Shown here one piece after another: positions 24,758-41,129 of a stretch of DNA of 64,000 bases. Positions within the stretch are counted from its first letter, which is position 1. Each line of letters opens with the position of its first letter. A program made the position numbers and the translations under genes. Source of the stretch: Bacteroidales bacterium UBA1223 (GTDB taxonomy: Bacteria > Bacteroidota > Bacteroidia > Bacteroidales > P3); NCBI GenBank assembly GCA_002309155.1, contig DBXB01000025.1:19589-83588 (forward strand), read 5' to 3'. Under the pieces are notes generated by a model that ran no database searches, was not told where the DNA came from, and saw nothing but the letters and a program-made list of their open reading frames with translations.

Positions 24758-27049
24758 ATGGATAGCCATATTAAACGTCTTCCCCGCATAGACATTATTG
24801 ACACAATTGGACGCCAATATCATACTAGTAATATAGAGAATGGCGAGTACAGTTATCAAAGAGATTTTGACCGACATCTGACAGGTCACTTCAAACTTGA
24901 TATCCGTTTTTTTGATGAAAATAATAAAATTGCAATTCTTGTTGAGACAAAAGATAAGAAATTCAAGAAAGCCGACATAGATCAACTGTTTGACTATGTT
25001 AATCTAGAAAAAGAATTATCTAATCGTACAAAAATAATAGCAATTCTTGCCGGCACACATGATGGCTCTCTTAGGGTATGGAAGATTGCCAACGGATATG
25101 ACGAGGAGTTATCTGATAAAAAAATAAAGTCATTAGCGGAATATGTCTCATATTTTCAGAAACGTAATCTCAACGACAAAACAAAGGTATTAGAAAATAC
25201 AGCCACTCTCAATAGGATGCTTCATGATAACGGAATACTAGAGGGTTTGCGTAGCCAGTTTGTAGGGACTTGTTTGTTAGCTCTTAAGGAAGGTTTGGTT
25301 TACAAAAATCTAACTACAAGCCAGATTTTGGCTGGAATCAAGGGCACTCTAGGTAAACTACTTCAGAATAGTGTTGATAAAGCCAATAAGATATCTGTAC
25401 TTGACACTAAAGTATTGCAAGATCAAAATGTTCAGAAAATTGATGCGGAAAATTTTTGTAAATTACTTGCTTTTATTGAAGACCAAATTTTACCATATAT
25501 CAATGAAGCAAGTACAGAGGGGCACGATATTTTGAGCTATTTCTTTACAACATTTAATAAATATGTTCAAAAGGGAGATAAGAATCAGGCTTTTACCCCT
25601 AATCACATTGCTCACTTTATGTGTAAAGTGGGGCATATTACGCGTAAAACAAGGGTACTCGACCCTACATGTGGTAGTGGAACATTTCTTGTTCAAGCGA
25701 TGTCACAGGCACTCTCAAAATGTGAAACTGATACTGAACGCGAGAATGTAAAACAACATCAAATCTTCGGAGTAGAGTCGGATGAGAAGGTGTATGGTCT
25801 TTCAACCACAAATATGTTGATACATGGCGATGGTAATTCCAACATATATTGCGGTTCTTGTTTTGAGAAGGAGGCTTTTATTAGAAATGCAGATGTGGAT
25901 TTGATTTTGATGAACCCTCCATATAATGCGAGCAAAAAACAGGTTGATAAGGATTATGCAAAAACCTGGGGGAAATCCACAACAGATCCATCAAAGGGGT
26001 TGTATTTTGTGGAATATGTAGCAAATGCTGTTAATAAAGGAAGGTTAGTAACTCTTTTGCCAATGCAGGCAGCAATAGGAGAGAGTGGTATAATTGCGCA
26101 GATTAAGAAATCAATTTTAGAGCATCATACGCTTGATGCTGTTTTTTCTTTTCCTTCAGAAATGTTTTATCCGGGGGCCAGTGCCGTTGCATGTTGTATG
26201 ATATTTGATTTGGGTAAACCGCATGCAGACAAAGACAATGACACATTTTTTGGATATTATAAGGATGATGGTTTTGAGAAACGTAAAGGTGTTGGGCGAG
26301 TAGACAATAAAGATAAATGGGAAGCTATTGAGGCCCAGTGGATTGATCTATACGAACATCGGACAAACAAACCCGGAATATCCGTCACACATAAAGTCAG
26401 CTATAACAACGAATGGTGTGCAGAAGCATATATGGAAACAGACTACAAGCCACTTTCTGATAATCTTTTCATAAATTCTATGAGGGATTATTCTTCGTTC
26501 TTGATGAAGCATGATGATTATTTAACGCCAAGAGTATATAGCAATCGGTCTCATACAAAAAAAAGTATAAAACTATCTGTGGAAAAGTGGGAATGGATTC
26601 CCATAGAAAAACTTTTTAAAATCAAACCAGGTCATTATTATTATCCCGACGAATATGAAATAGGGGATACACCATATTGTTCAGCTTCCGCAAACAATAA
26701 TGCAGTCACACAGTATATTGATTTACAACCAGACTTTGTTGGAAACCAAATTATGACAGGGAAAGTGGGTTGTACTGCATTCTACCAACCGTCCTCATTT
26801 TCAGCGACGAGCGATGTGAATGTTTTTATAGCAAAAGAGGGTACCCGAATGAATCCTTACATTGGAATGTTTCTTATCACAATTATTAACTTTAGTGAAA
26901 ACTATAAATGGGATTATGGCCGTCAATGCAGAAAAAATGATACAGAGAAAATTAAAATAAAACTTCCTGTCATAGAAGGAACAAAAAACCCAGACTGGCA
27001 ATTCATGGAGGACTACATCAAATCATTGCCTTATTCAAAGAACATTTAA
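24758..27049 (+). CDS. single-polypeptide restriction-modification enzyme (Type IIG-like): N-terminal PD-(D/E)xK nuclease + gamma-class N6-adenine methyltransferase + C-terminal S-subunit-like TRD
   Basis: 'KLDIRFFDENNKIAILVETKDK' (D...ExK; ETK at 24944-24952), motif I 'LDPTCGSGTFLV' (25661-), motif IV 'LMNPPYN' (25913-25924), C-terminal ~200 aa resembling a type I specificity TRD; about 33% G+C by hand count. Confidence 0.78.
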   Translation: MDSHIKRLPRIDIIDTIGRQYHTSNIENGEYSYQRDFDRHLTGHFKLDIRFFDENNKIAILVETKDKKFKKADIDQLFDYVNLEKELSNRTKIIAILAGTHDGSLRVWKIANGYDEELSDKKIKSLAEYVSYFQKRNLNDKTKVLENTATLNRMLHDNGILEGLRSQFVGTCLLALKEGLVYKNLTTSQILAGIKGTLGKLLQNSVDKANKISVLDTKVLQDQNVQKIDAENFCKLLAFIEDQILPYINEASTEGHDILSYFFTTFNKYVQKGDKNQAFTPNHIAHFMCKVGHITRKTRVLDPTCGSGTFLVQAMSQALSKCETDTERENVKQHQIFGVESDEKVYGLSTTNMLIHGDGNSNIYCGSCFEKEAFIRNADVDLILMNPPYNASKKQVDKDYAKTWGKSTTDPSKGLYFVEYVANAVNKGRLVTLLPMQAAIGESGIIAQIKKSILEHHTLDAVFSFPSEMFYPGASAVACCMIFDLGKPHADKDNDTFFGYYKDDGFEKRKGVGRVDNKDKWEAIEAQWIDLYEHRTNKPGISVTHKVSYNNEWCAEAYMETDYKPLSDNLFINSMRDYSSFLMKHDDYLTPRVYSNRSHTKKSIKLSVEKWEWIPIEKLFKIKPGHYYYPDEYEIGDTPYCSASANNNAVTQYIDLQPDFVGNQIMTGKVGCTAFYQPSSFSATSDVNVFIAKEGTRMNPYIGMFLITIINFSENYKWDYGRQCRKNDTEKIKIKLPVIEGTKNPDWQFMEDYIKSLPYSKNI

Positions 27050-27685: not shown

Positions 27686-28021
27686 TCAGAGCACAGCGGC
27701 TACTAACGTACACATGTCGTCCTCGCGACGTTGGCGCTGCTGCTCCTCCACCTCCCGTTGTGCTATCACCAGGCAGTCGTGTTCGTAGCCGTACTGCATC
27801 TGCATCCACGAATCATACGGTATCCCTAACTCTTTTTCCAACGCCATTGCAAAGGCTACGGTGAAGCTACGCTTCCCCTTGATCAACTCGTTTAGATGAC
27901 TGGGAAGAATGCCAATCTTTGCGGCGAGCTCTTTCTGCTTGATTCCGCGCTCTTTCAACTCCTCATTGAGGATCTCGCCCGGATGTACTGCACGGAACCC
28001 TGTGATTCTATCGTTGTCCAT
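27686..28021 (-). CDS. higA: HigA-family antitoxin (XRE-type HTH)
   Basis: 'HPGEILNEELKERGIKQKELAAKIGILPSHLNELIKGKR' is the canonical HigA/VapI HTH; overlaps the upstream toxin gene by 14 nt. Confidence 0.85.
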   Translation of the reverse strand: MDNDRITGFRAVHPGEILNEELKERGIKQKELAAKIGILPSHLNELIKGKRSFTVAFAMALEKELGIPYDSWMQMQYGYEHDCLVIAQREVEEQQRQRREDDMCTLVAAVL

Positions 28022-28322
28022 AATGCGTATCGTCTATTTCGATTAATGATATTTTAATTCCTTCTTCCAATTCGTGGAACAAGAGTCGTTCTACCCTGCC
28101 GTTAATCACCCTCACAGAACTCATTCCTACATGCTTCAATTGCTCATAATGGAGGTAACTGTAGTGCTTCAAGTCAGAGGCTGTTTTTTGCGCCTGCATG
28201 GTGAAATATACACGGTCAAGTGCGTCGAGAAACTTGCCATCTCGATGATATTTCTTGTACTTCTTGCTCTTATGATTAAGCACAAGGTTTTCTAATTCAA
28301 TGTCTTCAAACGTTACCTTCAT
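28008..28322 (-). CDS. higB: HigB-like (plasmid-maintenance killer / RelE superfamily) toxin
   Basis: 104 aa, toxin-first order; pattern 'F.D..LE.L...........L......A....DL.....L..E.LK....SVR.N...R..F.......I.LIEI.D.HYG' fits the HigB family. Confidence 0.65.
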   Translation of the reverse strand: MKVTFEDIELENLVLNHKSKKYKKYHRDGKFLDALDRVYFTMQAQKTASDLKHYSYLHYEQLKHVGMSSVRVINGRVERLLFHELEEGIKISLIEIDDTHYGQR

Positions 28323-28613: not shown

Positions 28614-30683
28614 GTGACTTATATTTTTATGAAAATAAGAGGATTTGTTTGCCTACTGGCTATAATGATGCTTTTTGCTTGCGGTGAGCGGGAGACGGGG
28701 ATTAACGGACTGTCACGCTCTAAGGTCGATGCACTGAACAAGCAGTCGTTCAGGCTCCGCACTCAGGACAGCAAGCTCTCTGAGCAATACGGCAGGATGG
28801 CGTTGAAGTATATCTCCGACAGTCTGCCGGGGTATAACGACGGCAAACTCAGGGCGTGGAATAATATCGCTAACTCCTATCTTCACAGGGCAAAGCATGA
28901 CTCGGTGATGATTTATATCGATTCGGTGCTTTCGTTTAAGGGCAAAGCCGCTAATTTGGAGGTGGAACAGACATTGGCTAAACTGCTGGAGGCACGATTG
29001 AGACAGAGAAAATGCGATATAGCCGGATCATATCAGATACTTTATGACGTGGAGAATTCCAAAATACTCGACAGGCGGGAGCAGTCAATGCTGTACAATC
29101 TTGCCAAAAGCGAGTTCTATATCACCACAACGACCCTCAACTACCACTATCGCAGTAAGTCGCAATATCAACAGGCAGAACTGCTCACAAAGATGGAGGA
29201 GCTTAGGAACGAACTATATTGTGACTATGCTGAGGATATGTCGTTCAACTACGCTATAGCATACGGTTACTATGCCCTTTGCTCAGACACAGTGAATCAG
29301 AAAGAATATCTTCGCAAATCCCTGCAGTACACATACGACAATCTACAACTTCTGGGCGACAGCTTGCGATTCAATACATACGAATTGGCGAATAACTACC
29401 AGATGTTGGGTTTTATGCTCTGGAGTCCCAATATTTCTTCGGAATCATGGGAGTATAATGAACCATTGCTCGAAGAGATTGGTCTCTTTGTCGGCGAAGC
29501 CTTTGGATTCGATGTGACGCAAAGTGACGACCCCGCATTTGCCTTTCTGAGTGAGGCAACGTCACTCTTTTTCCTGCATGACGACCCTTATCAACGGTTA
29601 GGAGCGGTAGTCGCCGCAGGCAGATACAGTATGGCACATGGAGATACTGTGACTGCCCGGTTGTATTTTAATGAGGCGTTGATTGACACCACTATGTTGG
29701 GTGTCGCTCCGAAATTCGAGGCGATGCTCTATGAGGGTTTCCTCACGTCGGGATGTGCCGAGAACACTGACGAGGTGGCGGAATGGACCCGCAAGGAACT
29801 GAAAATCCTCAACGAAATCAAGCAAAACGAGAAGGCGGATTTCCTCCTTCAGCTGGAACTGTCGCAGATAAGACGCAACAATATAGTCTTCCAGACATTC
29901 TCGCTGATATTGATATTGCTTGTTATCGCTCTGCTGGTGACATTATTCCTGTTGCGTCGACGCACCAAGGCGTTACAGCGGGAGACTATGCGTCTTCAGA
30001 ACGCCAAGCAGCAGGATGTGGAGAGAATCGCCAATGTGGAGACCTGCCTGTCCGTGTTGAGGCATGACATAACTCCATTTGTGTCGTACCTGCAGAACGA
30101 GAATCTGCCAGAGGATTTGCGTCGCGACGTGACAGGACAGCTGTTGCGTACCTTTGAGAATATCAAGAGTTGGACAAATCTCTCCATCCCCAGCGGACTG
30201 CAGTTCAGATGCGGCAATGTGAGCTTGCAACAAGTCTTTGACGGAGTCGCCGCCAGTGTCAACAACTACAAGTCAGACCATGTGGAGTTGCGTTTTGATT
30301 CCACCGAATTGACGGTAAAAGGTGACATTCTGTTGCTAGAGATACTGTTGCGTAATCTGGTAAACAATGCCATACAACATACAGAGAAAGGCAGTGTGGT
30401 AGTCTCGGCAAACAGAGACACGGAGGATGGCCGTTTCGCAATAGTGTCGGTAAGAGATACAGGCGAGGGGATGTCGCAAGAGGAGCTGGACAATCTGTTT
30501 AGGGCCGACAAGAAGATAAAGAGGCAGTCACATCAGAATGGTTATGGGACGGGATTCGGACTCATTCTCTGCCGTTATATCATCAAAAAACATGACGACA
30601 ACACTCAGAGAGGATGCCGTATATGGGCAGAGAGCAAAGAGGGTGAGGGAAGTTGCTTCTATTTCAGAATAGAGTCCTTGTAA
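28614..30683 (+). CDS. TPR-like-repeat sensor histidine kinase (periplasmic/lipoprotein-anchored sensor, 1 TM, HisKA + HATPase)
   Basis: likely start at 28629 ('MKIRGFVCLLAIMMLFAC'); TM 'FSLILILLVIALLVTLFLL'; H-box 'LSVLRHDITPF'; N-box 'LLRNLVNNAIQH'; 'VRDTGEGM'; 'GTGFGLILC'. Confidence 0.85.
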   Translation: MTYIFMKIRGFVCLLAIMMLFACGERETGINGLSRSKVDALNKQSFRLRTQDSKLSEQYGRMALKYISDSLPGYNDGKLRAWNNIANSYLHRAKHDSVMIYIDSVLSFKGKAANLEVEQTLAKLLEARLRQRKCDIAGSYQILYDVENSKILDRREQSMLYNLAKSEFYITTTTLNYHYRSKSQYQQAELLTKMEELRNELYCDYAEDMSFNYAIAYGYYALCSDTVNQKEYLRKSLQYTYDNLQLLGDSLRFNTYELANNYQMLGFMLWSPNISSESWEYNEPLLEEIGLFVGEAFGFDVTQSDDPAFAFLSEATSLFFLHDDPYQRLGAVVAAGRYSMAHGDTVTARLYFNEALIDTTMLGVAPKFEAMLYEGFLTSGCAENTDEVAEWTRKELKILNEIKQNEKADFLLQLELSQIRRNNIVFQTFSLILILLVIALLVTLFLLRRRTKALQRETMRLQNAKQQDVERIANVETCLSVLRHDITPFVSYLQNENLPEDLRRDVTGQLLRTFENIKSWTNLSIPSGLQFRCGNVSLQQVFDGVAASVNNYKSDHVELRFDSTELTVKGDILLLEILLRNLVNNAIQHTEKGSVVVSANRDTEDGRFAIVSVRDTGEGMSQEELDNLFRADKKIKRQSHQNGYGTGFGLILCRYIIKKHDDNTQRGCRIWAESKEGEGSCFYFRIESL

Positions 30684-30701: not shown

Positions 30702-31544
30702 TCAATCTCTTTTCAGGTAGTTGATGCTGTTTGGATCGATGATATGATATTGCAAGGCTTTGGCGATGCGTGCGCCTGATTTGTTTACAATGTTGAATTT
30801 GCGGGACAGCTCTTTCTGTTTCTCCTGAATGGACTTGTCGGTCTCGACCCATTTGGTGAGTTTTGTGGCTATCTCCTGAGCCGTGCATCCCGCCGCCTCG
30901 AGAAGCAGGATTTCCCGTTCCTCTTCGGAGATGGTCTCGTCAAGGGTGTCGTGTTTTTCTTGCTCGAAATAGAGTTCCGCCGCCTCTTTTATGGTCAGCA
31001 TCACAGGATAGTTGAAATAGTATTTCTCACCACGCTCAAGACACGAGATGGCTCGCAGGATGTTCTCGATGGAGAATCCACCCGTGGCGTTCTTGCTCAC
31101 AAAGGCGTTGGCACCCTTGTGAAGAGCCTCGAATACCACGCCACCAATCTCCTTGAGTCTGCGGGTGCGGTCGAATTCAGTCTGCAGAGGGTTGTCGAAA
31201 CGTCCTGAGAGAATGATGATTTTGATGTCTTCGCCGAGGATGTTCTTGTATTGACGGCGTATGCGTTCGGTGATGAAAACTCCTCCTGTGGGTTCCCCTT
31301 GGAATTCCATGTCTACGAGAAGATAGTCGGGACGTTGCCTCTGGGGGTCGTTGAGGGCGGCAAATAGTTGGGGGCCGTTGGCGAAGGTGTCGAGGACCAC
31401 TATTTCTTTCTGCTGGACATGACCGTCGTCGTCAATGCGACAATCCACCATCTCATGGCGGCTGTTCAGTTCATATTTTATGGCTTTGCGGATGATGGGT
31501 TCGTCGTCGACAATGGCAACGGTGATTACGTCGGGGTTTTCCAT
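30702..31544 (-). CDS. response regulator, receiver + LuxR/GerE-type HTH
   Basis: 'VAIVDDEP', phospho-acceptor context 'DYLLVDMEF', 'KIIILSGR', 'AFVSK'; C-terminal 'REILLLEAAGCTAQEIATKL...' HTH. Confidence 0.8.
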   Translation of the reverse strand: MENPDVITVAIVDDEPIIRKAIKYELNSRHEMVDCRIDDDGHVQQKEIVVLDTFANGPQLFAALNDPQRQRPDYLLVDMEFQGEPTGGVFITERIRRQYKNILGEDIKIIILSGRFDNPLQTEFDRTRRLKEIGGVVFEALHKGANAFVSKNATGGFSIENILRAISCLERGEKYYFNYPVMLTIKEAAELYFEQEKHDTLDETISEEEREILLLEAAGCTAQEIATKLTKWVETDKSIQEKQKELSRKFNIVNKSGARIAKALQYHIIDPNSINYLKRD

Positions 31545-32957: not shown

Positions 32958-32965
32958 TATCTTTG
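32958..32965 (+). promoter_or_regulatory. -7 box TATCTTTG for the NACHT gene
   Basis: TAnnTTTG match 30 nt upstream of the ATG at 32995. Confidence 0.6.
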
Positions 32966-32994
32966 CACTCTAAAAATTCCTGTGGAGTCTGACA

Positions 32995-35900
32995 ATGATT
33001 ACATTGGTAAATAGTTATGAAGAGTCTCAGAGTGAGGCCTTCCGTAGTTTGGTAGAGTCGTCGGCAGAGGGGCTTCCTTATACCTTGGCGCATCCCCTGA
33101 AGCAGCTCTACTCAACAATCGGGCAGGCTAACTATGCTAAAGCCAAAGATTACCTGCTGGAGTTGTTTGAGCTCTCGGCCCAGTATCTTTCTGTTGTGCT
33201 TCTGTCGTTGCTGCGTGAGCATGTCTCCGGCCAAGACTCTATCAATGCCAAAGAATTGTCAAGACTCGCCTCGGTGGCGCGCAAGATTGACACCAAACGC
33301 CCTCTCTCGTTCGGAGACTGGTGCAATGATATACTGCCTCCTCTCACCGAATCGCTTCTCAAACTTATCCCTCAGTCGCCATTGGCCGCTTCATTGTCCA
33401 GGAGAACCACTTCAAAACACAACCTCTTCGTAGGTGGGAAGAACGAGATTTCCATTGTCTATCTCCGCAACCATTACAAAGGACATGGCACCATGCTCAC
33501 CGACGAGAAGTACCATGAGTTGTTGGTCGGCGCTGAGCCCAGACTTATGCAGCTCCTTGAGGCGTTGTCGCCTCTTTGGGGTTGCACCAATCTGCATCAA
33601 GATTCGCATTTCTGGGTAGAGGGTTCTCTTGGTGTATCCAAAATAGATCTGTTCCCGTTGGTTTTCGCCGACAGCCGTGACTATGTCTATCTTTTCCAGT
33701 CGCTCAACGACGAGAAGGCATACTATGTCTCAGCCAACGAACAGGCGGAAGCCCTGCTCACTGCTGATAACAATCCGTCTATCGACGCTTTTTTCCAAGT
33801 CTTTGAACCCTCCTTCGATGTCGCCAAGCGACGTAACTGGACTGAGTGGACGTCGGTGCTCTCGACTGCCAGCAACCGATTTTTGCAAGGTGTTTACCGA
33901 GAGAAAAAATACAACCGTGAATTGTTCGTCGACAGGGGAGGATTGTCTACATTGCTGGGTGATTTCCTTGGCTCAGACGATACCTTCTTCCCGTTGCCGG
34001 GCGAGGCGGGTCAGGGAAAGACCAACCAGTTGTGCTTCTGGTGTGAACAGTTGCTTGCCGACAAGCAATATCTAAGCGACGGTTCGAAAGATGTGCGACC
34101 GGCGTCGGTATTGCTCTTCTCTGGCTCTGACGTGTCGGGGACCAACCTGGATGCATTCTTGCACGACATCCTCAATGTCTCTGGACGAAAAAGTCTCTCC
34201 AAGGTACTTGAAGAGATGCACCAGGCGGCAGAGGAAGCCCACTCTCAGTTGCTGATAATGGTAGATGCTCTCAATGAGTGTGAGAATTACAAGTTGGTTG
34301 CCGAAGATGGTATGGGCGGGAATAAGAGCGAGGCGGCCGCTGTCGCGTTGTTCAAAGACATGATCGCTGTTTTCGCAGGTCAGAGCTTTCCCTGCTTCAA
34401 GATTCTCTTTACCTGTCGCAACTATACGTGGAAACAACTTCTGCAACCCGAAATATCGTTGTTCGTAAAGAGCAATCCTCAGTGCGCCGTTAGTCTTTTT
34501 ACTCCTGATGAAAACGGCAATGCAGTGGTGCGGGGCTTCACCGACGACGAACTCCGTGATGCTTATGCCATATATAGCGATGTGTATAGCATACATACCC
34601 CTTTCAGTCAGGTCGCCCGTTCTCTGGCTTTGAGACTCAAAGATCCGTTGGTGTTGAAGATCGCTTGCACCAATTATCTTGGTGCCACGTTGCCAGAAAC
34701 CACAGGATGTCTCACTTCGCTGGCATTGTGGGATGGCCTTTATGCCAATATTCGCAACGCTTATGCTGGAAGCAAACAGATAGAGATTCTAGATGCTGTT
34801 AGTGACGCTATACTGAAGAATTACCTTGACGGAAAATCATCCAACAGTGTCAATATTTCAGAGTTGAGGTTGGCGTTCGACGACGAGAGCCATCCGATGC
34901 ACAGGCTGTCCAGACTGGTGTATGTGCGGAAAAACGGCGATACGTCCAAGTTCTCCATCTCCGTGGCTTTTGCCGAGCTGGTTAACCGACCTGAACGTCC
35001 GGTGCTCCGCTACACACAAGACGACAGAATACAGTTTGTCTATGAACGTTTTCTGGAGTATATGCTCTCCAGACTCTTGCTGGAGCGTTTCGGTGCTGCG
35101 GTGGATGACGTGACTGTGGCTTCGTTCATGAAAGAGGTAAACTCCGACGAGGTGATGCTGGGCGCTATGCGGAACGTCCTCATAAAGTTATATGCCGATT
35201 CAGGTGACAGCGGTCTGCTGGTCTCCTTGATTGCCAGACATAGTGAGGATTTCCTGATGATGACACTCCTGACGGATGTGATGAATGTGTTGGTGCGAGA
35301 GAATTACGAGGAGGAACTGTTTTCTATTGAAGAAGCATTGTCTGAGCAGACAGGCATAGACGATTTCGATGAGAAGGTTATCGGCGAGTTCAACAGTCTA
35401 TCTAAGAAAATAGATACCAACCAGGCGACATCAGAGATAATCTCCAGGTTCAACCAACTGCATGCCCACCTGAAGCCCATGCTGAATCTGCGTACCATGG
35501 CAATACAGACTCTGTTGGGCGGAATATTTCTTACCGACTGGTTCAACGAGGATTTGTATCATAAAGACCCGTTCAGTCTCCTTTGGACTTTGACCGACGA
35601 TCCTTTGGTGGAGGTCAAAGACGCTGTCTGCTTGCAGTCTTACTATGTGTCATATCAGCATTACACATTAGGAGGCACACCTATCGATAGAAATCTGTCG
35701 GAGTATATTGCCTCACGTATGTACGACTGGCTCGATTCGCATTCGGTGGTTACCATGATTGCCAGTGGAAGGAAACGACGCCGGATGGTTACATTTCTCG
35801 AGACCGCGACACGTCTGCTGGTGATGCAGATTATCGATGTCATGTTGTCTGAGGACTCTTCTCAGCAGTATCGTATTCCCTTGATGCTTGACCGTCTGCG

Positions 35901-37125
35901 TAGCACTGTGCGGCATTTGACGCTGAACCACACCCTCGTGAGACTGGTTCTTCCTGCATTGAATATTGTTATGCGCCGTCAGCTTACCTTCCAGAAGGAT
36001 TATGTCAACAACGCCATTGAGTACCAGCGTTTCTGGACGGCATTGCCACAGCGGACATCTGCCAATGGTGAATGGTCAAAGTCCGATTTGCCGGAAATCA
36101 TGCGGTATATCTTTCAGTATTCGAGATATTACTCGCAGGGAAAATCGGAGGAGGCTCCCGATTTCAAATCAGCCATCGACCGCATCTGGGCAGCATACCA
36201 GACCGGCGACAGTCTCTCGTATTTCGTCATAGAACGTCTCATTGTCATCAATGGTGTATGCTCATGGGAGTCGATACGTCCTCTGATGCAAAGACTCGAC
36301 GACGGGAGTCTGTCCAAGACCCGATGGTGGGACTACACCCAGATGTCGATAATTTACGACCTTTACCAGCTGGGCATGAAGATGCCCCAGATGCCTGACG
36401 AGCTGATGGAGATGTTTGGACGTTGGTGTGTCGACTGGACCCGCAGATTGAGAGGACTCTTCGTCGCTCCCAACAGTGCCATAGCTAACCCTCGCCAGAA
36501 ATACAAACGTAATGTGATGACCTGGTATGCCATGGTATATGCATACCGAAATGGCGATGTGCGTCGAGAACCCTACAAGTCGGTGCCTCTTTTCTATCAA
36601 CTCCTTGACGAGGCTGTCGACAACCGTGATGGCGAACTGTTGGTCCATTTGGTGGAGAATATCTCTGAGCTTGTCGCAGACTCGGGCTATGTACAAACCG
36701 CCTTGGATCTGCTCTCACATCTTATGCATCGTATCGACAACGAGTCGATGCTCGTCGATATGTCTCTTCAGGAAACCTTGCCTTCCCAGCTGGCACTCCT
36801 GCTCAGCACTGCGAAGTCGTATGCCCCCGATGCGGTAAACGCTTTTATCGCCAATGAGATGATTCACCTGCCATTCCCGGGAGTGGAGAAATACCGTGAC
36901 GAGATACTTAATTACACTCCTTGCGGAGAGAAACTCTCTGACGTGCTGACACACAGGTTCGGTAATTTCATCATCTTCGGACTTATCCATCAGGAGGAGA
37001 TCGACAGATTCTGCTACGATGTGTCACAGCAACTCGACAAGACCAAAGACTTCACGCAGTGGTTTGCCATCGTTGTGCGTATGCTGCTACGTGATTTGTT
37101 GAAGATAAACATAAAAGTATCGTGA
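32995..37125 (+). CDS. NACHT/STAND-class P-loop NTPase, NLR-like (helical N-domain, NTPase, ~850-aa helical C-terminal region)
   Basis: Walker A 'PGEAGQGKT' (nt 34000-), Walker B 'LLIMVDALNE' (D424 at 34264), 'ILFTCRNYTW' sensor-1-like; no TM; N-domain 'YLRNHYKGH' (Rx5H). Confidence 0.75.
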   Translation: MITLVNSYEESQSEAFRSLVESSAEGLPYTLAHPLKQLYSTIGQANYAKAKDYLLELFELSAQYLSVVLLSLLREHVSGQDSINAKELSRLASVARKIDTKRPLSFGDWCNDILPPLTESLLKLIPQSPLAASLSRRTTSKHNLFVGGKNEISIVYLRNHYKGHGTMLTDEKYHELLVGAEPRLMQLLEALSPLWGCTNLHQDSHFWVEGSLGVSKIDLFPLVFADSRDYVYLFQSLNDEKAYYVSANEQAEALLTADNNPSIDAFFQVFEPSFDVAKRRNWTEWTSVLSTASNRFLQGVYREKKYNRELFVDRGGLSTLLGDFLGSDDTFFPLPGEAGQGKTNQLCFWCEQLLADKQYLSDGSKDVRPASVLLFSGSDVSGTNLDAFLHDILNVSGRKSLSKVLEEMHQAAEEAHSQLLIMVDALNECENYKLVAEDGMGGNKSEAAAVALFKDMIAVFAGQSFPCFKILFTCRNYTWKQLLQPEISLFVKSNPQCAVSLFTPDENGNAVVRGFTDDELRDAYAIYSDVYSIHTPFSQVARSLALRLKDPLVLKIACTNYLGATLPETTGCLTSLALWDGLYANIRNAYAGSKQIEILDAVSDAILKNYLDGKSSNSVNISELRLAFDDESHPMHRLSRLVYVRKNGDTSKFSISVAFAELVNRPERPVLRYTQDDRIQFVYERFLEYMLSRLLLERFGAAVDDVTVASFMKEVNSDEVMLGAMRNVLIKLYADSGDSGLLVSLIARHSEDFLMMTLLTDVMNVLVRENYEEELFSIEEALSEQTGIDDFDEKVIGEFNSLSKKIDTNQATSEIISRFNQLHAHLKPMLNLRTMAIQTLLGGIFLTDWFNEDLYHKDPFSLLWTLTDDPLVEVKDAVCLQSYYVSYQHYTLGGTPIDRNLSEYIASRMYDWLDSHSVVTMIASGRKRRRMVTFLETATRLLVMQIIDVMLSEDSSQQYRIPLMLDRLRSTVRHLTLNHTLVRLVLPALNIVMRRQLTFQKDYVNNAIEYQRFWTALPQRTSANGEWSKSDLPEIMRYIFQYSRYYSQGKSEEAPDFKSAIDRIWAAYQTGDSLSYFVIERLIVINGVCSWESIRPLMQRLDDGSLSKTRWWDYTQMSIIYDLYQLGMKMPQMPDELMEMFGRWCVDWTRRLRGLFVAPNSAIANPRQKYKRNVMTWYAMVYAYRNGDVRREPYKSVPLFYQLLDEAVDNRDGELLVHLVENISELVADSGYVQTALDLLSHLMHRIDNESMLVDMSLQETLPSQLALLLSTAKSYAPDAVNAFIANEMIHLPFPGVEKYRDEILNYTPCGEKLSDVLTHRFGNFIIFGLIHQEEIDRFCYDVSQQLDKTKDFTQWFAIVVRMLLRDLLKINIKVS

Positions 37126-39574: not shown

Positions 39575-39638
39575 AAACAACTATTTTCATTTCTGTGTAA
39601 ATTCTATTCTTGTTTTGTTACCTATTGTCCGAGAAACA

Positions 39639-41129
39639 ATGAAATCAATCATGAAAACAAGAATAGCGATAATGACCTTACTGCTTTTCTGTGTTGGCAG
39701 TACAAATGTCGTTGCTCAAACCACAGACACCGCCTCGTCGGTCGACACGGTCTATATTCCTGCCGACCTGCCTGACTGCATGAGGACGCTCGACGCAATA
39801 CTGTCTGACACTACAAAAAATCAGATTTTCAATACTACCAGAGCTGATTTCGGTGGACTTGCTCATTTCTCTCTCGGCTTGTGGATACGCAACAACTGGG
39901 GTCTTTGGAGAGGCTCACAGCTTCAGACCTATTTCCTCGACAACGGCATACGCCACCCCGATGACATGTCGGGTCTTATCCTCGACTGCTATTGGCAACA
40001 CCTGCATGGTCACTCACCAAACTACCGGCGTCTTCTGCGAAAGGAAAGCCGCGCCGAACAGAAATGGATACGTAAAATACAAGAATCCGAACGCCAAGAG
40101 AGTCTCAAATACCAGGAATGGGGATTTCTGGAAAACTATGAACAACCTTTCGACGACTCGACACGTACAATTGAAAGCAGCACTGCCCCGCTAAACCTTC
40201 CGCTGAAAGACAATGTGACAGGTGCCGAAGTGCGATTACGCCTTACCAGGGAAGACACTATCGGCCATACGGAAACCGACTGTCTGAAACACAATATTCA
40301 TCGCGAGGCACACTGGACTCCACGACCCGACCAGCATGTCCGCCGCATTGTCCAAGGGGTATATGGACGTGAACCCTACGGACCTGTAAAACAGATTACA
40401 ATAACAGAAAGCAAGGGGTATATCAGTCAATTGGATTTCAATCCTGACGGAACATTGGCACGCTATCTCTCCAAAGGAAAGAAAAAAACATGCAGTGAGT
40501 TTGTTTACGACGACAAAAAGCTTTCCGCCGTCAAACATCTTGTCAACGACACTCTTAGAAAAGTCGCTAGCTACAGCTATTTTGGCCACGGGCACTGCCA
40601 TGTGACAATCGTCAAATACCTATCGGACAACGGCACCGACACGACGTTTTACGACTATTGGTTCTCCGCGGAAGGCCAGCCCCTGCGACTCTGCGGCGAA
40701 AACGACTACCTGTTTCAATACGACAGCACGGGAAGGTTGGTGAACGAACTGTCGTATCAGGAGGGGCGTCTTTCAAACTGGCTATCCTATGTCTATGACG
40801 ACAGTCAGAATGTATATTATGAAATAAACAAGAATGTCTTCGAATCAATTGTTTATGCAGTTGTCCGCAATCCTATGGGTGATGTGTTAGGCGAGTGCTT
40901 CATTGAGAGACTCGACATTTTCGACCACGAAAAGACAGCCTATTCGTACAGCTACGACAAATACGGCAACTGGACAAAGTCCTATATATTGGGAAAGCTG
41001 GATGAAAAATGCAAGATAAAATACTACCGGAAATCCCAGTACAAATCCCCCTCTTATCCTTCCTCACAGGCAGGTGTATTCCCTAAACCGGGAGCTTGGA
41101 TACTCCTACACTTCGACGACATCTGGTAG
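39639..41129 (+). CDS. secreted hypothetical protein with YD/RHS-like repeats in the C-terminal half
   Basis: ATG at 39639 gives signal peptide 'MKSIMKTRIAIMTLLLFCVGSTNVVAQ'; 'YDSTGRLVNELSY', 'YSYDKYGNWTKSY' YD-type repeats. Confidence 0.55.
   Translation: MKSIMKTRIAIMTLLLFCVGSTNVVAQTTDTASSVDTVYIPADLPDCMRTLDAILSDTTKNQIFNTTRADFGGLAHFSLGLWIRNNWGLWRGSQLQTYFLDNGIRHPDDMSGLILDCYWQHLHGHSPNYRRLLRKESRAEQKWIRKIQESERQESLKYQEWGFLENYEQPFDDSTRTIESSTAPLNLPLKDNVTGAEVRLRLTREDTIGHTETDCLKHNIHREAHWTPRPDQHVRRIVQGVYGREPYGPVKQITITESKGYISQLDFNPDGTLARYLSKGKKKTCSEFVYDDKKLSAVKHLVNDTLRKVASYSYFGHGHCHVTIVKYLSDNGTDTTFYDYWFSAEGQPLRLCGENDYLFQYDSTGRLVNELSYQEGRLSNWLSYVYDDSQNVYYEINKNVFESIVYAVVRNPMGDVLGECFIERLDIFDHEKTAYSYSYDKYGNWTKSYILGKLDEKCKIKYYRKSQYKSPSYPSSQAGVFPKPGAWILLHFDDIW

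Follow-up and report, generated by a model that had tools for sequence, protein, structure and literature searches.

What does a bacterial relative of the NLR immune receptors do when it is not encoded on its own? Such proteins are mostly known as single-gene sensors. The question is raised by a stretch of 64,000 nucleotides (nt; hereafter the window) from Bacteroidales bacterium UBA1223 (GenBank assembly GCA_002309155.1, contig DBXB01000025.1, positions 19,589 to 83,588), which encodes a 1376-residue STAND NTPase. The initial annotation treated this gene as standing alone; instead, we found it to be part of a near-obligate cassette, or triad, with genes for a CorA-like membrane protein and a glycerophosphodiester phosphodiesterase (GDPD), both of which are present in 70 of 80 loci. 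This linkage suggests an undescribed three-gene conflict or defense system. With a probability of roughly 0.5, we propose that the STAND protein is the sensor and switch of this system, which is most likely directed against phages or other mobile genetic elements, and that its HEPN-like N-terminal heads cleave RNA.

The STAND protein and its HEPN-like head

The STAND open reading frame starts with ATG and is uninterrupted by stops; its domains and its partner genes are collected in Table 1. Translation placed each previously quoted motif at the residue given for it: the Walker A motif GEAGQGKT at residues 336–343 (nt 34000–34023), with K342 as the Walker lysine; the Walker B motif LLIMVDALNE at residues 419–428 (nt 34249–34278); FTCRNYTW at residues 472–479 (R475 codon, nt 34417–34419); and, in the N-terminal domain (N-domain), VYLRNHYKGHG, where R158 to H164 span nt 33466–33486. 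Among 32 full-length homologs with 40–68% identity, G336, A338–T343, D424, A425, N427, E428, and F472–R475 are invariant, as are R158, N159, Y161, G163, and H164 of the N-domain; to judge from this alignment, the motif residues are under selection.

Table 1. Features of the three-gene cassette in the window (positions count from the first nucleotide of the 64,000-nt stretch; TM, transmembrane)
Feature	Position	Strand	Basis or remarks
CorA-like partner gene, 424 aa	31575..32849	-	Divergent from the STAND gene; large cytoplasmic N-domain and two C-terminal TM helices
Candidate promoter -7 box TATCTTTG	32959..32966	+	Fits the Bacteroides -7 consensus TAnnTTTG; ~29 nt upstream of the STAND ATG
HEPN-like/NACHT/helical-repeat STAND NTPase (P0001), 1376 aa	32995..37125	+	Translation, homologs, AlphaFold2, Foldseek
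HEPN-like helical bundle, residues ~10–197	33022..33585	+	AlphaFold2 pLDDT mostly >90; VIA-align; invariant motifs
Beta-rich subdomain (198–256) and helical linker (260–325)	33586..33984	+	AlphaFold2 model; barely covered by fold searches
NACHT-type NOD module (nucleotide-binding domain, helical domain, winged helix), residues ~331–683	33985..35043	+	Motifs, profiles, AlphaFold2, Foldseek
C-terminal all-helical repeat region, residues ~684–1376	35044..37122	+	Secondary structure of the model; as conserved as the NTPase
GDPD gene, 270 aa	37122..37934	+	GTG start and STAND TGA stop share 4 nt; signal peptide and lipobox

The claim that these motifs form a NACHT pattern holds. The Walker A motif agrees with the GxxxxGK[ST] form of STAND/NACHT NTPases; the Walker B motif has invariant acidic residues at D424 and E428, and N427, equally invariant, takes the place of the D that normally precedes the E. 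Invariant R475 of F-T-C-R occupies the position of the sensor-1 arginine (the "TSR" position), at the end of a strand formed by model residues 149–155 in the AlphaFold2 model of residues 320–1376. This model (pLDDT 82.9) consists of an alpha/beta nucleotide-binding domain, a helical and winged-helix part, and unbroken helical repeats from residue ~684. In a Foldseek search of the PDB, its best match was Avs4 (8dgf; E 5.8e-6), followed by NLRC4, NLRP2/3/9, NOD2, and Avs3, all of them, including Avs4, with a probability of 1.00, as expected for an NLR-like nucleotide-binding, helical, and winged-helix fold. Because of these matches, the assignment of the protein to the STAND/NACHT NTPases is secure. 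The Pfam NACHT model (PF05729) scored below its cut-off (16.7 bits against 26.7; E 0.0067), and precomputed PF05729 matches are present on more than 20 of the 120 listed homologs.

The similarity of the NTPase fold to Avs4, NLRC4, NOD2, and NLRP3, together with the helical repeats at the C terminus, upholds the predicted effector-NTPase-sensor layout of a bacterial NLR-like protein, and the highest 19-residue Kyte-Doolittle mean of 1.54 agrees with the predicted lack of a TM segment. The C-terminal region, described as helical and ~850 residues long, does consist of helical repeats; its size was overestimated, since it had included the helical and winged-helix parts of the NACHT module, and the repeats proper cover residues ~684–1376. 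This region is presumed to be a sensor or partner-binding domain. Judged by profiles, the protein belongs to no named Avs type. Membership in Avs2 (AVAST type 2) was considered and rejected: NCBIfam model NF041813 scored 23.4 bits against a cut-off of 1000 and covered residues 334–430 only, and the PADLOC models for Avs2 matched only ~100 residues around the P-loop. Pfam scans detected no DNA-binding, other regulatory output, or nucleotide-synthesizing domain in the STAND protein.

Among 5.8 billion proteins searched, 269 relatives were found. The best 120 of these 269 are all full length (~1275–1400 aa) and 38–68% identical to the query, with the exception of one near-identical copy (99%); gut or rumen metagenomes account for nearly all of these 120, and the few that are named belong to Bacteroidales. 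Mean pairwise identity is 0.46–0.56 in every segment of the protein, the C terminus included. Upstream of the gene lies a sequence, TATCTTTG, that may serve as its -7 promoter element, TAnnTTTG being the -7 consensus of Bacteroides sigma-AB promoters.

The identity of the N-domain is less straightforward. The AlphaFold2 model of residues 1–335 (pLDDT 89.7, pTM 0.83) shows a helical bundle at residues 10–197, a small beta-rich subdomain at 198–256, and further helices at 260–325, so that the earlier description of an all-helical domain of ~330 residues applies to the first and last of these parts and not to the beta-rich one. The bundle carries three conserved elements: E59 (nt 33169–33171), the loop S105-F-G-D-W109, and R158-N-x4-H164. 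In the model, E59 lies within a long helix (47–79), helices 85–134 form an insert, R158 and N159 are at the end of helix 154–161, and H164 is in the loop before helix 170–190. According to a survey of the HEPN superfamily (PMC3710099), the arginine is usually followed by N, D, or H; in many families, helix 2 contributes a second acidic residue that is conserved, often within an Ex3[KR] pattern; and helices 2 and 3 are frequently separated by an insert. The N-domain has the Rx4-6H signature with a polar residue after the arginine, and both this motif and the acidic E59 are placed as in the survey.

Structural comparison with VIA-align, a search independent of Foldseek, points in the same direction. 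In a first run, with Z-scores of 6–7, about 11 of the top 50 rows were HEPN domains, which aligned to model residues ~25–195 and mostly covered almost the entire target: Roquin, HI0074 (1jog; Z 6.2), 1wwp, Csm6 (three entries), SO_3166, an AMPylated HEPN toxin, 4nqf, sacsin, and AbiA. In a second run, the best natural match was Roquin (4txa; Z 7.7 over 130 residues at 3.1 Å); other natural matches were Roquin-2 (RC3H2, 4z31; Z 7.4) and Csm6 (6tug; Z 6.3), and AF_0298 (2hsb) reached Z 6.2 over 118 of 126 residues. We regard this evidence for an HEPN fold as suggestive rather than decisive, because Z-values of this size are common for helical bundles. The ESM Atlas returned unnamed clusters and an RnlA lead at 0.78, which led nowhere.

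We then used a profile of the N-domain, built from the first ~200 residues of 41 family members (174 positions), in all of which R158, N159, and H164 are invariant. A search of 1.84 billion cluster representatives with this profile gave 139 matches. Outside the STAND family, the domain was found at the N terminus of other NACHT/NPHP3_N-TPR proteins (P0196, P0204, and P0209), at residues ~450–640 of ~750-residue proteins whose front half matches PADLOC models of the mad2 methyltransferase and/or of a Type I specificity subunit (Specificity_I), after an FHA domain (P0193), and after a PCMT methyltransferase (P0218). No Pfam model covers it in any of these four contexts, and no Pfam HEPN model matches either the STAND protein or 10 remote copies of the domain. 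The motifs persist: in 30 aligned remote copies, R, N, and H are present in all 30 and the G before the H in 28; G107 and W109 of the S-F-G-x-W loop are found in 30/30; and the position of E59 is occupied by E in 26 copies and by D in 3, while the residue four positions further on is K or R in 14/30. From its range of fusions, the domain appears to be a mobile module of the kind found in conflict systems.

On this basis, we consider it likely that the N-domain belongs to the HEPN superfamily as a family not yet in Pfam. We call it HEPN-like and probably an RNase, with odds of catalysis that are about even. The HEPN signature first read into R158–H164 is borne out by the invariance of the motif, by its placement, and by the best natural structural matches; the Z-scores of only 6–7.7 and the lack of a profile tie to any named HEPN family do not sustain it to the same degree.

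Two side observations concern the fusions. The ~750-residue proteins that combine a methyltransferase part matching PADLOC mad2, a Type I specificity part (target recognition domain, TRD), and a C-terminal R-N-x4-H domain (P0186, P0191, P0200, P0203, and others) look like an undescribed restriction-modification-linked HEPN-like fusion. In P0205 (895 aa), a glycoside hydrolase of family 3 has a C-terminal match to the HEPN-like domain (E 3.9e-6); this odd fusion could be an assembly or gene-call artifact.

The partner genes and their distribution

The neighborhood sample comprised 80 STAND loci from GTDB species genomes of Bacteroidales, in which partner genes were counted by tblastn. The GDPD gene was detected in 75 loci and the CorA-like gene in 72. 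Most loci in which a partner is missing are contig ends; the real exceptions are L011 and L077, which have no CorA-like gene, L020 and L029, which have no GDPD gene, and L015, which has neither. The GDPD gene lies downstream of the STAND gene on the same strand, and 42 of 66 pairs have overlapping reading frames; in 29 of these 42, the overlap is 4 nt long, as it is here (GTGA, 37122–37125). The CorA-like gene is mostly divergent and upstream of the STAND gene, as here; in some loci it precedes the STAND gene on the same strand or follows the GDPD gene. As its variable position shows, the linkage of the triad is kept while gene order changes. Genes outside the triad vary widely between loci.

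The closest species-level relative is a yak rumen metagenome-assembled genome (MAG) (L002; 63% identity), which has the same right-flank gene as the window, encoding an L-aspartate-oxidase-like flavin adenine dinucleotide (FAD) protein. Gene calling placed no GDPD between the FAD gene and the STAND gene in this locus, and tblastn detected a GDPD-like sequence within it; the GDPD of L002 may be displaced or degraded.

The CorA-like protein has TM helices at residues ~366–386 and ~400–420 and matches PADLOC CorA models derived from CRISPR loci (E 2.5e-4 and 5.8e-3); the ESM Atlas placed it in CorA-like clusters at 0.95. An alternative partner of ~480 residues (c20), present in four loci, matches the PADLOC CorA models far better (E 8.8e-13 and 1.2e-10), and the two partner types align with each other in hhalign (probability 70%, E 4e-5). 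The model match, together with two C-terminal TM helices, marks the partner as a CorA-like protein of the CRISPR type. Only the stalk and TM part share this similarity, and the N-domain of the protein lies outside it. A CorA Mg2+ channel was rejected as a candidate identity: the GMN selectivity motif is absent (the sequence reads ...FSMLNAAF...), and the score against Pfam CorA (PF01544) is below the cut-off (13.8 bits against 27; E 0.036). Two congeners encode distant CorA-like paralogs with 28% identity, the neighborhoods of which are uninformative.

The GDPD scores well above the cut-off of its Pfam model (PF03009; 123.4 bits against 23.6, E 2.2e-35), and its closest solved structure is 2pz0 (E 1.7e-34). 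The catalytic motifs HRG, E-x-D-x-H, and HD are all present, and the lipobox region reads ...LSVMTLSC...; by these features, it is a standard, catalytically intact enzyme of its family. Of 66 GDPD orthologs, 52 have a hydrophobic signal or anchor (six of them with a lipobox), nine have a short hydrophobic stub, and five have neither. In loci such as L004, L006, L018, L064, and those of the L013 type, which belong to named Cryptobacteroides or unclassified Bacteroidales, the GDPD either has no signal peptide or has a hydrophobic stub of 13–16 residues directly before the catalytic HRG. The compartment of this enzyme, as predicted from its N terminus, seems to differ between lineages.

The triad is confined to gut and rumen Bacteroidales. 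We did not find the STAND gene in 24 other species of the genus, nor close copies of the CorA-like or GDPD genes; among 400 other genomes, sampled evenly across the order, three had the STAND gene. In the source MAG, which is 68% complete, the gene is single-copy. Phocaeicola plebeius DSM 17135 (L058) carries the triad intact. The triad is a sporadic accessory cassette that is not reliably located in defense islands, since only about 8–10 of 124 non-redundant flanking proteins match PADLOC models at E 1e-8; for the same reason, we make no claim of a defense-island setting.

Proposed mechanism and competing explanations

We propose the following sequence of events. The helical-repeat region would bind a trigger, which could be a conserved protein of the invader or some change among the system's own partners; NTP-dependent oligomerization of the NACHT module would then pair the HEPN-like heads, a step modeled by analogy on effector activation in Avs and other NLR proteins. 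The paired heads would complete composite R-N-x4-H active sites, leading to RNA cleavage and a stop of growth. The CorA-like protein could be a membrane-level co-effector or a docking partner gated by the activated STAND protein, and the GDPD, probably translationally coupled to the STAND gene, might act on an envelope phosphodiester, candidates being a head group of surface or lipid molecules and a phosphodiester signal. We infer both the defense role of the triad and the role assigned to the GDPD. The GDPD step is the weakest and least understood part of the mechanism, because the usual location of the enzyme outside the cytoplasm is hard to reconcile with control by the STAND protein and because its compartment is inconstant.

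Several results weigh against this proposal. Some of them concern the head domain. The bundle was modeled with confidence by AlphaFold2, but the Foldseek search that had been suggested together with such a model gave no HEPN match, with only spurious FERM rows in the PDB and no matches at all in BFVD. The VIA-align Z-scores, none above 7.7, are within the range that helical bundles reach by chance, as the program itself warns. No Pfam (E up to 10), PDB, or HEPN_Swt1 profile matches the N-domain. Profile-profile comparison with HEPN was made for the Swt1 family only, and hhalign of the N-domain against HEPN_Swt1 from Bacteroidales genomes was not significant (probabilities of 0.1% and 6%); the only stretch aligned was a short one, the R..H motif. 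Beyond the head domain, all parts of the STAND protein are conserved to the same degree, and none stands out as a fast-evolving sensor; export or membrane anchoring of most GDPDs makes this enzyme hard for a cytoplasmic sensor to regulate, and the missing export signal in 5 of 66 copies means that its compartment varies; no copies of the gene were found in known phage or plasmid collections; and there is the scarcity of defense genes among the flanking proteins given above.

One alternative keeps the conflict system and moves the effector to the membrane. The head would then be a non-nuclease domain (ligand-binding, nucleotide-binding, or an adaptor), and the STAND protein would control the CorA-like channel directly or through a small phosphodiester-containing molecule degraded by the GDPD. 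This would have a parallel in type III CRISPR systems, where CorA is the effector of a SAM-AMP signal that Cas10 makes and NrN resets; CorA in these systems is paired with a signal-degrading phosphodiesterase and sometimes fused to the HEPN protein Csm6-2 (PMC11229360). The matches of the CorA-like partners to PADLOC models of CRISPR-associated CorA and the near-obligate triad fit this explanation, as does the fact that many HEPN-fold domains are non-catalytic binders (PMC3710099). However, the strict invariance of R, N, and H in all contexts suggests catalysis over binding, no nucleotide-synthesizing domain was detected in the STAND protein, and most GDPDs are exported and thus unable to reach a cytoplasmic signal. 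In addition, the CorA similarity excludes the ligand-binding N-domain. We think that a purely membrane-borne effector is unlikely.

The triad might also have no immune function, being an accessory module for envelope, lipid, or cation homeostasis, in which the STAND protein, as an NTP-driven switch, would connect a cytoplasmic cue with a CorA-like cation channel and with a periplasmic glycerophosphodiesterase; one such task would be the scavenging or remodeling of glycerophosphodiesters. On the one hand, the GDPD is an ordinary member of its enzyme family, catalytically intact and, like GlpQ, equipped with an export signal; proteins of the CorA family are cation channels; the STAND protein is evenly conserved along its length; and the flanking genes are mostly housekeeping, with few neighbors that match defense models. 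On the other hand, the cassette occurs sporadically (0 of 24 congeners and 3 of 400 genomes of the order), the head domain is common to restriction-modification-type fusions and other NACHT-TPR proteins, and the closest structural relatives of the STAND protein are immune NLRs and Avs proteins; moreover, the STAND protein has no detected DNA-binding or other regulatory output domain, and the CorA-like protein lacks the GMN cation-selectivity motif. A homeostatic role of this kind strikes us as improbable.

We rate lower still the chances of a bolder scheme, in which the cytoplasmic STAND protein would act across the membrane: it would gate the CRISPR-type CorA-like channel and, with the exported GDPD, make or destroy a phosphodiester signal or a surface structure outside the cytoplasm. 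The HEPN-like head would be a new, widely fused effector family, and the triad a STAND-driven counterpart of the Cas10/SAM-AMP/CorA/NrN circuit. Finally, a self-sufficient, Avs-like STAND protein with functionally unlinked passengers as neighbors is very unlikely: most characterized bacterial NACHT/Avs proteins do act alone (Kibby et al. preprint) and five loci lack one or both partners, but both partners are retained in 70/80 loci despite differing flanks and rearranged order, and 42/66 STAND-GDPD junctions overlap.

The proposed sensor-and-switch system can be set beside three known ones. With the Avs proteins and the bNACHT proteins of Kibby et al., the STAND protein has in common the layout of an N-terminal effector, a NACHT NTPase, and C-terminal helical repeats; Avs4, Avs3, and animal NLRs are its closest structural matches, and there are weak Avs2 profile matches over the P-loop. 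The Avs proteins are reportedly the subject of work by Gao et al. in 2022, with structures 8dgf (Avs4) and 8dgc (Avs3). Those systems are mostly single-gene, whereas the STAND gene described here is locked to two partner genes; the protein is in no named Avs type, and its C terminus is not fast-evolving.

The second comparison is with the HEPN RNases (Anantharaman et al. 2013), which include Csm6, the KEN domains of RNase L/Ire1, Swt1, AbiD/F, and the HEPN-MNT toxins. The R-N-x4-H motif of the N-domain fits Rx4-6H with a polar residue after the arginine, the insert between helices 2 and 3 is present, the domain is fused to STAND and restriction-modification components, and HEPN domains are its best natural structural matches. 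In contrast to these RNases, the N-domain shows no profile-level link to any named HEPN family, carries in addition an invariant S-F-G-x-W loop and a glycine in front of the histidine (GHG), and has an RNase activity that is putative.

The third is the CorA/NrN signaling module of type III CRISPR in Bacteroides fragilis, reportedly described by Chi et al. in 2023. Here too a two-TM CorA-like protein is encoded beside a phosphodiesterase in a sensing system, in the same bacterial order, and PADLOC CorA models from CRISPR loci match the partner proteins of the triad. Unlike that module, the triad has no Cas10 or any known signal synthase; its phosphodiesterase is a mostly exported GDPD rather than a cytoplasmic NrN, a DEDD enzyme, or a lyase; and the cytoplasmic N-domain of the CorA-like partner is unrelated at the sequence level, the likeness being restricted to the stalk and TM part.

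The STAND protein taken alone is not new in kind, because HEPN-NACHT fusions are a recognized class of bacterial NLRs (Kibby et al. preprint; PMC3710099), and the effector classes listed for bacterial NACHT proteins include HEPN (Kibby et al. preprint). What is new is the R-N-x4-H domain family, which is unannotated in Pfam, with its range of fusions, and the fixed partnerships of a bacterial NLR with a CRISPR-type CorA-like protein and with a mostly exported GDPD; our literature search found no paper on the combination of these three components. The triad would show NLR signaling wired to membrane and extracytoplasmic components. Since the R-N-x4-H domain of ~170 residues is common to NACHT-TPR, methylase-TRD, and FHA proteins, its activity would inform several uncharacterized systems. 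The phage defense of Bacteroidales is far less explored than that of E. coli, and the presence of the triad in a cultured human-gut member of this order, P. plebeius DSM 17135, makes it directly testable.

Genes around the cassette

In the window, one side of the triad carries a two-component pair, a toxin-antitoxin-like pair, and a Type IIG restriction-modification gene; the other side is housekeeping. A response-regulator gene (30702–31544, minus strand) is directly behind the CorA-like gene and convergent with a histidine-kinase gene (28614–30683, plus strand). These two genes are probably not part of the triad, because neither is conserved beside it in other loci. Two small overlapping genes at 27686–28322 (minus strand), encoding 111 and 104 aa, are probably a toxin-antitoxin pair, as judged from the match of the first to helix-turn-helix antitoxin-like PADLOC models (PDC-M64C and PD-Lambda-2_B). 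Farther away, a gene at 24758–27049 (plus strand) encodes a 763-residue Type IIG restriction-methylase-TRD fusion (PADLOC REase_MTase_IIG; E 1.9e-51) and lies in a stretch of low GC content (0.37–0.41, compared with ~0.49 around it).

In five other loci (L024, L028, L042, L051, and L072), genes for FHA/zinc-ribbon proteins, a PP2C phosphatase, and a Ser/Thr kinase-AAA protein, together with one for a protein of ~1100 residues, lie upstream of the triad. These neighbors and the fusion of the head domain to FHA in P0193 hint at a link to phospho-signaling. On the GDPD side of the cassette in the window, a gene at 39615–41129 (plus strand) encodes a 504-residue protein with an N-terminal DUF6794 domain (E 3.3e-32).

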